Origin: Escherichia phage A5-4
Sequence record: OP744025
DNA: 64,000 nucleotides
Strand: one strand, 5' to 3'
Shown here: positions 25,461 to 27,248 of the stretch, piece after piece
Layout: every line of letters begins with the position of its first letter
How positions within the stretch are numbered: the first letter of the stretch is position 1
Translations under genes and position numbers: made by a program
Notes under the pieces: generated by a model
The model's input: only the letters and a program-made list of their open reading frames with translations
What the model was told of the DNA's origin: nothing
The model's database searches: none

Positions 25461-25664
25461 GTCATGTCCATCGGTGCGACTCTCCCAACTCTATTAATCC
25501 CTTCCCCATTTGGATCATCATAACTTATCTCATCTAATCATTAATCTAATCCCCTTTGGAATCTCTCCCCCACAAATCTAAACTAATCTGATAGCTTACC
25601 ATAACATAATCCACAAAGAAAGAACTATTTTGCCCACAAAGAAAGGCAGTTTTAAAGAGATACC

Positions 25665-26085
25665 ATTGCCAGAGTATGGAGGTGGCGCGACCGTAGGGAG
25701 CGACACTATAAAACGAGTATACCCCTCCTACCGCCCTGCGGTCATCGGTGATAACCGATAACATACTGTTATCTGTTCTCTTCGTTTCCTCGTTTTATAG
25801 TGTCTATATGTAGTAATCTTTTATTCTTTGTCAACAGATTAATTGGCTTATAGACAATTATTTATAGTGATTTATTATGCATAGTTATTGATTATGTATG
25901 CAATAAGGATACAATAAGGATACAGTAGCGGTAGTGTAGCGACGCTGTAAATATCAACAAAGAGAGGCCGTATTTGCCCACAGAATGAACAAGTAAGCAG
26001 GGCGGTACGCCCTTTTGCTAGGTAAAACTCTCTTCTCTCTTCTTTCCCAAATAAATTTTTTCTTGCTTTTATTGCCAGAGTATGG
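25665..26085. repeat. dispersed direct repeats ATTGCCAGAGTATGG (x2) and TTTGCCCACA(A/G)A (x2)
   Basis: copies at 25665 and 26071; TTTGCCCACA motif near 25630 and 25973. Confidence 0.55.
26000..26016 (+). terminator. terminator-like hairpin inside non-coding region
   Basis: GGGCG-GTA-CGCCC followed by TTTT. Confidence 0.45.
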
Positions 26086-26447
26086 CGGGCGCTCAGGCTA
26101 TTGATGGCCCTGATGGAGTCGCTCCTGCACAGTTGGGATAGTTCATCGTTGGATAGTCACAAGTTGGTATTATTCTTCCCACTAGTTGGAACAGGCCAGG
26201 CCTGGCAAGGCTTAGAGTCGCCTCACTTGTTGGACGGAAGGAGGGCGCTTGCGGTGCGTATAAGTTGTATTATGTTAAATGCAGATCGAAATTGGTATTC
26301 TAAACCAGATTCAGAAGTCAAGGGAAATCTTTAACTTTATTGTTGGAGTAGCACAACATTTTTCTTGACAAGTCGAATCAAAGATGTATTGTGGATTGAA
26401 AATAAATGAAGATAATGCTTGACTTCTTGGATATTTTGAAAACATCG

Positions 26448-26466
26448 GACCCCCTCCCCCTCCCCC
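26448..26466. repeat. C5-T-C5-T-C5 homopolymeric tract
   Basis: CCCCCTCCCCCTCCCCC in otherwise AT-rich non-coding DNA. Confidence 0.7.
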
Positions 26467-26843
26467 ACGGTTGCCATGCCTGGCAGCAGTGCCAACGCAC
26501 TAAACAAAAAAGATGCAAACATCCTCCGCTTTCTCCTCTCCGACAAAAGACAACAGACAAGGCTGGTTAGACTGGTTAGCCTCTTCAGGCCAGTACCCTT
26601 TGGATATATTTGGGCAGGATAAATAATAGACCACCCCCGTAAGAGGTGACTCAAAATTTTGGCGGGAGGGTATAAAAACTAAAAAGTGGTCGTTTAAAAT
26701 TTATGGCAGAGGTCCACTCAGGGTAGACATATACTGGAAATTCTAAACTATGGGGATGGATGTATAGGGAAGGGAGGTGACTCAGTGGGAAGTGGTATGT
26801 GGTAAGGGATTTATACACACGAGCCTCACTAGGCGAATGTGAC

Positions 26844-26877
26844 TCTGTGGACAATAGGTATTACTCTGTGGACAATC
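26844..26877. repeat. 13-bp direct repeat CTCTGTGGACAAT x2
   Basis: copies at 26844 and 26865; TGTGGACAA is one mismatch from DnaA-box complement TGTGGATAA. Confidence 0.65.
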
Positions 26878-26947
26878 GGAATAACATGAAGTAGGTCAGT
26901 CTCTTCAGAAAGTCTTGACCATTGCGGAAATATATGAAGTAATCCGT

Positions 26948-26993
26948 CAACCAAAATGGTTTACATTGTGGAAAGTAAACCAAAATGGTTTAG
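26948..26993. repeat. 15-bp direct repeat AACCAAAATGGTTTA x2
   Basis: copies near 26949 and 26978. Confidence 0.65.
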
Positions 26994-27069
26994 ATGTGGG
27001 TAAACAGATGTGACTCGACAGGCAAAGTGGTGTGTCTCAGTAGGCCAACAGTGGTTACTCTTTAGGCAA

Positions 27070-27248
27070 ACTACCTAATTTTGGGATGAATCGATATTTG
27101 TGGGAATCGTTGTACGATATTTGGGCATTATTGTATGCAGTGTACAACAGTTTGGAAGGACTATATAGTTTGGTGGGCACAACATTTTGGGATGAGCAGA
27201 TGAGTTTGGTTGCAATCCAGATGCAAAAAGCACCCACTTTTGGGGTGC
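27070..27248. repeat. periodic TTTGG(G/T) motif array
   Basis: about 8 copies (TTTTGGGATGA x2, TTTGTGGGAAT, TTTGGGCAT, TTTGGTGGGC, TTTGGTTGC, TTTTGGGGTG) at 15-30 nt intervals. Confidence 0.5.
27225..27248 (-). terminator. rho-independent terminator ending leftward unit
   Basis: minus strand GCACCC-loop-GGGTGC followed by TTTTT. Confidence 0.6.

Follow-up and report, generated by a model that had tools for sequence, protein, structure and literature searches.

In a 64,000-nt stretch of the genome of Escherichia phage A5-4 (OP744025; this whole stretch is called the window below), the interval 25461-27224 forms a gene-free gap of ~1.8 kb with convergent terminators on either side. We consider it probable, judging from the sequence and its relatives, that a Vequintavirinae myophage has its concatemer junction in this gap, where the ends of the linear virion DNA meet in a circular assembly, and that a direct terminal repeat (DTR) of 460 bp, present once in the assembly, occupies positions 26021-26480. 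In packaged DNA, the left terminus of the molecule would coincide with the left edge of the predicted repeat and the right terminus with its right edge. Among its options, a first-pass annotation of the window had listed a circularised assembly in which the ends of a linear genome are joined here, and this option is now well supported by the read-defined repeats of relatives and by the exact 462-bp repeat of phage UPEC06. Such terminal repeats are already known from the subfamily but had not been spelled out before in this clade.

By sequence, the window derives from a phage of the Vequintavirinae (rV5-like Escherichia coli myophages) that resembles Septuagintavirus. Only five phage records match the gap (A7_1, A73, W70, LTH01 and UPEC06), all of them Vequintavirinae with 83-92% identity, and sensitive blastn adds none. 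A7_1, A73 and W70 belong to the published genus Septuagintavirus (PMC11370258), and phage Jab has been described as related to Septuagintavirus and UPEC06. Clade-specific patterns scanned over viral contigs revealed no further relatives, and the 28 loci found in a metagenome scan were all chance matches without blastn similarity to the window.

Edges of the predicted terminal repeat

The first 462 bases of the UPEC06 record are identical to its last 462 bases, both record ends lie inside the gap region, and the repeat aligns to window positions 26021-26480; the UPEC06 authors used PhageTerm for the termini. For the Vequintavirus phages LL12, Gotham, EdH4 and HdK5, four independent groups reported fixed direct terminal repeats of 458-459 bp, and read-based analysis places this non-permuted DTR in the same gap between convergent transcripts. 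Gotham has terminal repeats of 459 bp according to its authors (annotated at record positions 1-459), a terminal redundancy of 458 bp was reported for EdH4 and HdK5, and the repeat of the Klebsiella phage KPP-1 (Mydovirus) comprises 514 bp, as determined from twofold coverage and PhageTerm. For Jab, CheckV yielded a repeat of 475 bp.

Position, length and edges of the predicted repeat all agree with these read-defined repeats. Like them, it is found where two convergent arms leave a gene-free gap, just past the same conserved 139-aa gene: the window open reading frame (ORF) at 24695-25114 is homologous to LL12 gene 160 (139 aa), which adjoins the LL12 DTR, and this homology also reveals that the window is oriented opposite to LL12 and Gotham. 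The predicted length of 460 bp falls within the ~450-520 bp expected for such repeats and compares to 459 bp in Vequintavirus, and the repeat is non-coding, as its sole ORF (77 aa, TTG start) is broken in two of six relatives and exhibits no codon-position bias. Whereas the whole repeats cannot be aligned between the window and LL12 or KPP-1, and the remaining Vequintavirus sequence is unalignable even by sensitive blastn, the edges are common to all of them. Read in the orientation of the window, with a slash marking the edge, the left edges are ttgcta/GGTAAAACTCTCTTC in the window, ttgcta/GACAAAACTCTCTTC in UPEC06, gtgtca/GACAAGTTTTTCTCC in LL12 and ttgcta/AACACAATTCTCTCTCC in KPP-1. At the right edge, the window has ..CATGCC/tggcagcag, the UPEC06 repeat ends ..CGCCGTGCC, LL12 has ..GTCCGCC/tggcagcac and KPP-1 ..TGTCCGTC/tagcaccgc. 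The right edge ..GCC/TGGCAGCA is thus common to the window and LL12, with ..CCGTC/TAGCACC in KPP-1, and the motif T[AG]GCA[GC]C begins exactly at the first base past the DTR in all three genera (window, LL12 and KPP-1). In the window, TGGCAGCA at 26481-26488 (+ strand) represents the first bases outside the right edge and is a putative cleavage or recognition motif. On the left, UPEC06 and LL12 have A/GACAA and then a pyrimidine tract, and KPP-1 has TGCTA/AACAC..TCTCTCTCC; a pyrimidine-rich left edge is also shared by the window and the Vequintavirus repeats.

Within the otherwise unalignable terminal repeats one further motif is kept, GTATTATGTTAAAT (26267-26280, + strand), whose core TATTATGTTAAA starts at repeat offsets +247 (window), +277 (LL12) and +225 (L042, a 121-kb viral contig). 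The predicted repeat also contains a rightward sigma-70-like promoter (TTGACA-16-TATTGT, 26365-26392, + strand) whose predicted -35 and -10 hexamers are invariant in six relatives, and a C5TC5TC5 tract (26450-26466, + strand) that stops 14 nt short of the right edge and is conserved bar one base in UPEC06. Past the right edge, two types of motif recur at corresponding places in other genera: CTCTTCAGG, with two copies in the window and four in LL12, and ATATTTG(T)GGG, which the window likewise shares with Vequintavirus; in L042, three copies of CCTTCAGAG directly follow the putative repeat. The left edges are approached differently. In LL12 (L007 2426-2490), six helically phased GTGTC(A/C/T) units with ~10-bp spacing run up to the repeat edge (..GTGTCA/GACAAG..), whereas the window lacks such an array and has a G+C hairpin adjoining the edge instead.

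The palindrome element outside the repeat

Upstream of the left edge, a conserved block GGCGCGACCGTAGGGAGCGACAC (25684-25706, + strand), which includes GGCGCGAnCGTAGnGAGCGACAC, leads into a large palindrome (25702-25804) that encloses small hairpins inside a perfect 16-bp outer stem (25702-25717 and 25789-25804). The DNA fold of the palindrome reaches -22.7 kcal/mol (z = -6.8). The block is the same in KPP-1 and in seven IMG/VR contigs of 83-147 kb that were found by a cross-genus scan for the block pattern. KPP-1 combines it with a 21-bp perfect stem, LL12 carries a diverged form of the block together with nested 18-bp perfect stems, and the phage Schickermooser has a 15-bp perfect stem. The palindrome is separated from the DTR edge by 216 bp in the window, 211 bp in LL12, 308 bp in KPP-1 and 208 bp in Schickermooser. 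In Vequintavirus as in the window, the perfect palindrome (~211-216 bp outside the left edge) is accompanied by a direct-repeat pair placed around it, which in LL12 is a 20-nt pair. In the window the pair consists of ATTGCCAGAGTATGG at 25665-25679 (+ strand), 22 nt upstream of the palindrome and invariant in six relatives, and a second copy at 26071-26085 (+ strand), 50 bp inside the predicted terminal repeat, whereas the analogous second copy of LL12 lies outside the repeat.

KPP-1 shares with the window the identical block GGCGCGAnCGTAGnGAGCGACAC, a related palindrome stem (AGCGACACAATAACACGGGAG) and similar edges (TGCTA/AACAC..TCTCTC and ..CCGTC/TAGCAC), but its repeat is longer (514 bp) and its palindrome is bigger, with 164 nt between the arms, and lies at a greater distance (308 bp) from the DTR. 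No Klebsiella phage record searched contained the 139-aa flanking gene. Phapecoctavirus (phAPEC8-like phages) encodes a homologous 139-aa gene (89% amino acid identity) before a non-coding gap, and the Schickermooser record has an exact 329-bp terminal repeat starting AGCAAGTTCTCTT with a palindrome 208 bp outside. In contrast to the window, these phages belong to the subfamily Stephanstirmvirinae, their repeat is shorter, the genes past the gap run in the same direction rather than convergently, and the GGCGCGA block was not found.

Across the genera, nine distinct stem variants yield 160 of 160 cells with Watson-Crick pairs and neither a mismatch nor a G-U wobble. Compensated double changes affect 10 of the 18 stem pairs and one-sided changes none, with no shuffle or slid register coming close. 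The 100% pairing figure is partly built in because the arms were found by a complementarity search, but this does not apply to the compensated differences between versions. Compensated changes are seen in the inner hairpins of the palindrome too. The absence of wobble pairs fits a DNA palindrome, or arms copied from each other, better than a typical RNA helix.

The block-plus-palindrome element was described nowhere in the literature searched. Its position and conservation suggest that GGCGCGAnCGTAGnGAGCGACAC and the palindrome act in end processing or repeat duplication, and we tentatively propose that the element, present ~200-300 bp outside one edge in several Vequintavirinae genera, could be an undescribed cis-element for terminal-repeat duplication or processing. 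The element might fold back to prime or template synthesis, or terminase or primase might be loaded there onto single-stranded DNA. If the element does have such a role, the lack of wobbles and mismatches in every stem variant would reflect arms copied from each other. The inner palindrome also contains the heptamer ATCTGTT (25771-25777), which is invariant in all six relatives. The same heptamer forms the core of the class II signal at which T7 RNA polymerase pauses in the concatemer junction of T7; the likeness is probably fortuitous, as a T7-like polymerase is not known from these phages.

Repeat content, conservation and competing explanations

The high direct-repeat density noted in the first-pass annotation is real. 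Exact direct repeats of 10, 11 and 12 nt cover 255, 240 and 179 bases of the gap, respectively, compared to means of 30, 8 and 3 and maxima of 97, 72 and 50 in dinucleotide shuffles, and this coverage is not matched by any of 134 other 1764-bp stretches tested in the window. The individual repeat pairs, the tandem, the 12-bp palindrome and the C5TC5TC5 tract listed there are all present at or near the places given: besides ATTGCCAGAGTATGG, these comprise two copies each of TTTGCCCACA (25629 and 25973), ACTCTGTGGACAAT (26842 and 26863) and AACCAAAATGGTTTA (26949 and 26978), the tandem of two ATAAGGATACA units (25901-25924), and the palindrome GCCAGGCCTGGC (26195-26206). The latter can be dismissed as a functional site, as relatives carry GCCAGAACTGGC instead. 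GTGACTC is found in four exact copies in the gap (0.06 expected). The GTGACTC-N3-GG family is represented by two exact copies and one with a single mismatch, and the proposed number of about five is reached only by including degenerate members such as GTTACTC and GTGTCTC. The array described as TTTGGG was likewise recovered, with 11 copies of TTTGG on the + strand of the gap (2.75 expected), six of them clustered within 27080-27205. Over the whole window, the counts of GTGACTC-N3-GG and ACTCnGTGGnCAA do not exceed those of shuffles, so that only their local clustering is notable, and ACAACATTTTGG shows no enrichment across the window.

The alignment of six relatives reveals a mosaic of conservation. 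The conserved block and palindrome (25609-25830) have a mean identity of 96% with 2% gaps and are followed by a variable AT-rich spacer (25831-26020; 79%, gaps 21%), which includes the ATAAGGATACA tandem and, at the left edge of the repeat, the hairpin AGGGCG-GTA-CGCCCT (25999-26013). The predicted DTR (26021-26480) has a mean identity of 95% with 7% gaps, the hypervariable repeat zone past it (26481-27040) 76% with 45% gaps, and the array of (C)ACAACA-TTTTGG(G)-type units adjoining the terminator of the leftward arm (27041-27224, + strand) 93% with 8% gaps. As the flanking genes are 88-98% and 89-92% identical among relatives, three sub-segments of the gap (palindrome block, DTR and TTTGG array) are at least as conserved as the flanking coding DNA. 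The unit number of the terminator-proximal array varies, relatives differing by whole extra units. The hypervariable zone contains CTCTTCAG (26581 and 26901), GTGACTC and ACTCTGTGGACAA units, the AACCAAAATGGTTTA pair, the DnaA-box-like TTGTCCACA, and CTCTGTGGACAAT, and here whole repeat units come and go among relatives.

Two relatives have larger insertions in the region. W70 carries a gene for a 160-aa HNH endonuclease (Pfam HNH_3, E=5e-13; PHROG 99) at L005 4144-4626, the equivalent of window position ~26586, which looks like a free-standing homing endonuclease that landed in non-essential DNA. In A73 (L004 ~3639-3741), ~100 bp of extra sequence lie inside the terminal repeat, beginning with ~50 nt that match, without a difference, a portion of an RCC1-like gene ~4.4 kb away (window 30806-30858, - strand) and continuing with a second copy of the repeat segment including ATTGCCAGAGTATGG. 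Since the locus tags jump from 1 to 264 at this place, the A73 insert may be an artefact of assembly circularisation rather than a real rearrangement.

Several observations weigh against a concatemer junction with fixed ends. Because the window holds a single copy of the repeat, the termini of this phage itself are derived from homology; the UPEC06 paper does not state its PhageTerm result in words; the repeat of Jab is 475 bp long and not 460 bp as predicted here; and the roles proposed for the palindrome and flanking repeats derive from position and conservation alone. The left edge of the window reads GGTAAAAC where UPEC06 and LL12 have GACAA (GACAAAAC), and owing to the two-base difference from UPEC06 the exact left cut could lie a few bases off. 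In addition, the close relative rV5 was reported to be circularly permuted, as were the bov phages by PhageTerm, which called several Vequintavirus isolates 'circular permutated'. A circularly permuted genome packaged by a headful mechanism would have no fixed ends, and the gap would be a termination gap with decaying repeats and scars of mobile elements, to which the homing-endonuclease gene of W70 and the indel-rich segment 26481-27040 would correspond. We nevertheless regard this as very unlikely, because four independent groups report fixed repeats of 458-459 bp at the homologous place, the ends of the UPEC06 record match the motifs at the read-defined LL12 edges to the base, conservation in three sub-segments of the gap equals or exceeds that of the genes beside it, and the rV5 claim is based on 3.6-fold Sanger coverage. 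Still less credible is that the UPEC06 overlap is an assembly artefact and uninformative about physical ends. The record is indeed labelled 'partial genome' and stems from a SPAdes assembly of 151-bp reads. However, overlaps at SPAdes contig ends are k-mer sized (<=127 bp) and not 462 bp long, the overlap length is within 3 bp of the DTR of the related genus, and both overlap edges bear the edge motifs of LL12, Gotham and KPP-1; the four independent reports and the base-exact edge motifs make an artefact improbable.

Two further explanations concern a different function of the gap, and we consider both unlikely. One is that the gap is, or contains, a replication origin, in which iterons and DnaA-box-like sites would stand beside an AT-rich unwinding patch. 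Eight DnaA-box-like sites (TTATNCACA, <=1 mismatch) are found in the gap compared to 2.5 expected from its share of the window, including two copies of TTGTCCACA and one perfect site, the GC content drops to 23% at 25800-25899, and the cumulative GC skew has its maximum at the gap. Like iteron-type origins of plasmids and lambdoid phages, the gap is gene-free and combines clusters of short direct repeats, whose density is genuine, with an AT-rich patch. In contrast to such origins, the gap has short repeat units of heterogeneous sequence at irregular spacing, which mostly lie in the least conserved segment, vary by whole units among close relatives and have no recognisable initiator gene beside them. 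No conserved regular iteron array of at least three copies emerged in the gap, the families having 2-4 exact copies at irregular spacing, mostly in the zone with 45% gaps; the DnaA-box-like sites and the AT-rich patch are both weakly conserved. The skew turn coincides with the switch in gene orientation and is explained by the change in transcription direction, a conclusion that the rV5 authors also reached for the homologous locus. For the origin suggested in the first-pass annotation, the DnaA-box-like sites and the single AT-rich patch provide weak and non-specific support, and the annotation's argument from iteron density is only partly relevant because most of the listed repeats fall into the indel-rich, poorly conserved 26481-27040 or are single pairs. 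The other explanation is that the block and palindrome (25684-25804) encode a structured non-coding RNA and that the repeat region hosts small transcripts, conservation thus reflecting RNA function. As RNA, 25660-25830 folds with -51.7 kcal/mol (z = -4.0), compensated changes occur across genera in the outer and inner stems, and the conserved sigma-70-like promoter at 26365-26392 has more promoter-like sites close by. On the other hand, Rfam 15 yielded no match at gathering score in the whole window and none even at E<=1 in the gap, no convincing promoter precedes the block, none of the 160 outer-stem cells is a G-U wobble or mismatch, which a DNA palindrome or copied arms would explain better, and the distance between palindrome and DTR is fixed in three of four genera.

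Flanking genes and the proposed formation of virion ends

The coordinates, the broken ORFs and the absence of codon-position bias bear out the description of the gap as non-coding and bounded by convergent terminators. The rightward gene array is closed by the hairpin GGGGCCGCAATAGTGGCCCT (25443-25460, + strand), at which relatives have pairing-preserving changes (GCAATAGTGGC and GCTATTGCGGC), and the leftward array by the intrinsic terminator AGCACCCCAAAAGTGGGTGCTTTTT (27225-27248, - strand), which is almost unchanged in relatives. Each of the last two rightward genes is followed by a terminator hairpin, and the two hairpins (25130-25147 and 25443-25460) are near-identical (GGGGCCGCAATAG[C/T]GGCC). 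Between the hairpins lies a 65-aa gene that is missing in LTH01 and UPEC06, consistent with gain or loss by recombination between the hairpin copies. Hidden protein genes in the gap were rejected: of the nine longest ORFs, checked in five relatives, most are broken by frameshifts or stops in the majority of these, and none of them has an excess of third-codon-position changes at variable sites. ARAGORN detected neither tRNA nor tmRNA genes in the whole 64 kb.

The proteins flanking the gap have no Pfam match, and their PHROG matches are absent or of 'unknown function' only. Flanking genes for a terminase or an initiator were considered and discarded, as no such domain was found in any protein tested; a terminase gene is not present in the 64-kb window. 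The larger window proteins match unrelated domains (RCC1-like, ribonucleotide reductase, ThyX and others), and the nucleotide-metabolism genes of the window, NrdD, NrdA and ThyX, are also seen in this phage group. Among the 142 phage records matched by tblastn, which include Vequintavirus and Phapecoctavirus, nearly all encode the 139-aa protein (24695-25114, + strand; PHROG 12277, function unassigned) with 84-90% identity, and its gene is the last or next-to-last before the terminal-repeat gap in every locus compared (window, five close relatives, LL12, phAPEC8 and Schickermooser). In at least one record it is labelled 'DNA translocase', a label that Pfam does not support. Thirteen 'Campylobacter phage' records (e.g. 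MG065654 and MG065646; ~135-137 kb) also encode this gene with ~85% identity; given that these records resemble ordinary rV5-like coliphages, the host labels may be wrong. Farther from the gap, RCC1-like beta-propeller repeats are present in three consecutive paralogues of 380, 414 and 410 aa (30211-33742, - strand), an unusual cargo for a phage, and 41629-46008 (- strand) encodes an RlaP-type nucleotidyltransferase and a protein resembling CCA-adding enzymes (PolyA_pol and HD), although the 64 kb contain no tRNA gene.

If the gap is the concatemer junction, terminase would recognise it and cut concatemers precisely, at ..TTGCTA/GGTAAAAC.. on the left and at ..CATGCC/TGGCAGCA.. on the right. 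Nicks might be placed on opposite strands just inside the roughly mirror-image motifs TGCTA/ and /TRGCA, and strand-displacement synthesis over the 460 bp would then generate a full repeat at both ends of each packaged genome in the manner of T7. The block and palindrome ~215 bp outside the left edge would be a candidate cis-signal for terminase binding, end processing, repeat duplication or priming, and past the right edge the CTTCAG and TTTG(T)GGG repeats, which are conserved too, would be candidates for recognition or priming. We infer the cutting, nicking and displacement steps from the positions and the conservation of these elements, which are themselves observed.

In T7-type phages, whose short repeats PhageTerm classes as 'DTR, short', each concatemer junction contains one repeat, terminase cuts at fixed sites and the repeat is copied for both daughters; in T7, arrays of short repeats flank the terminal repeat. 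The predicted repeat resembles this type in being a non-permuted exact repeat of a few hundred base pairs that is present once per concatemer junction and needs duplication. Unlike T7, this phage is a ~140-kb myovirus, presumably using host RNA polymerase, with genes at both ends transcribed outward, and the T7 junction has no sequence similarity to the gap. KPP-1 was classed as T7-like by PhageTerm, and a DNA hairpin including the repeat was seen in T7 infection according to a paper citing Chung and Hinkle (1990). How the repeat is duplicated in T7-type phages is poorly understood according to a recent review.

Knowing the true ends would allow the genomes of this clade to be oriented and compared correctly, given that the records of the five relatives start at differing, arbitrary places. 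It would also decide for fixed ends where the literature is divided between 'terminal repeat' and 'circularly permuted', and it would tell phage engineers which non-coding DNA to keep. The palindrome and the edge motifs are of moderate interest because they make the question of repeat duplication testable: a compensated palindrome at a fixed distance and mirror-image edge motifs would provide mutable targets for distinguishing nick-and-displace from hairpin-primed models in a second, unrelated phage group.

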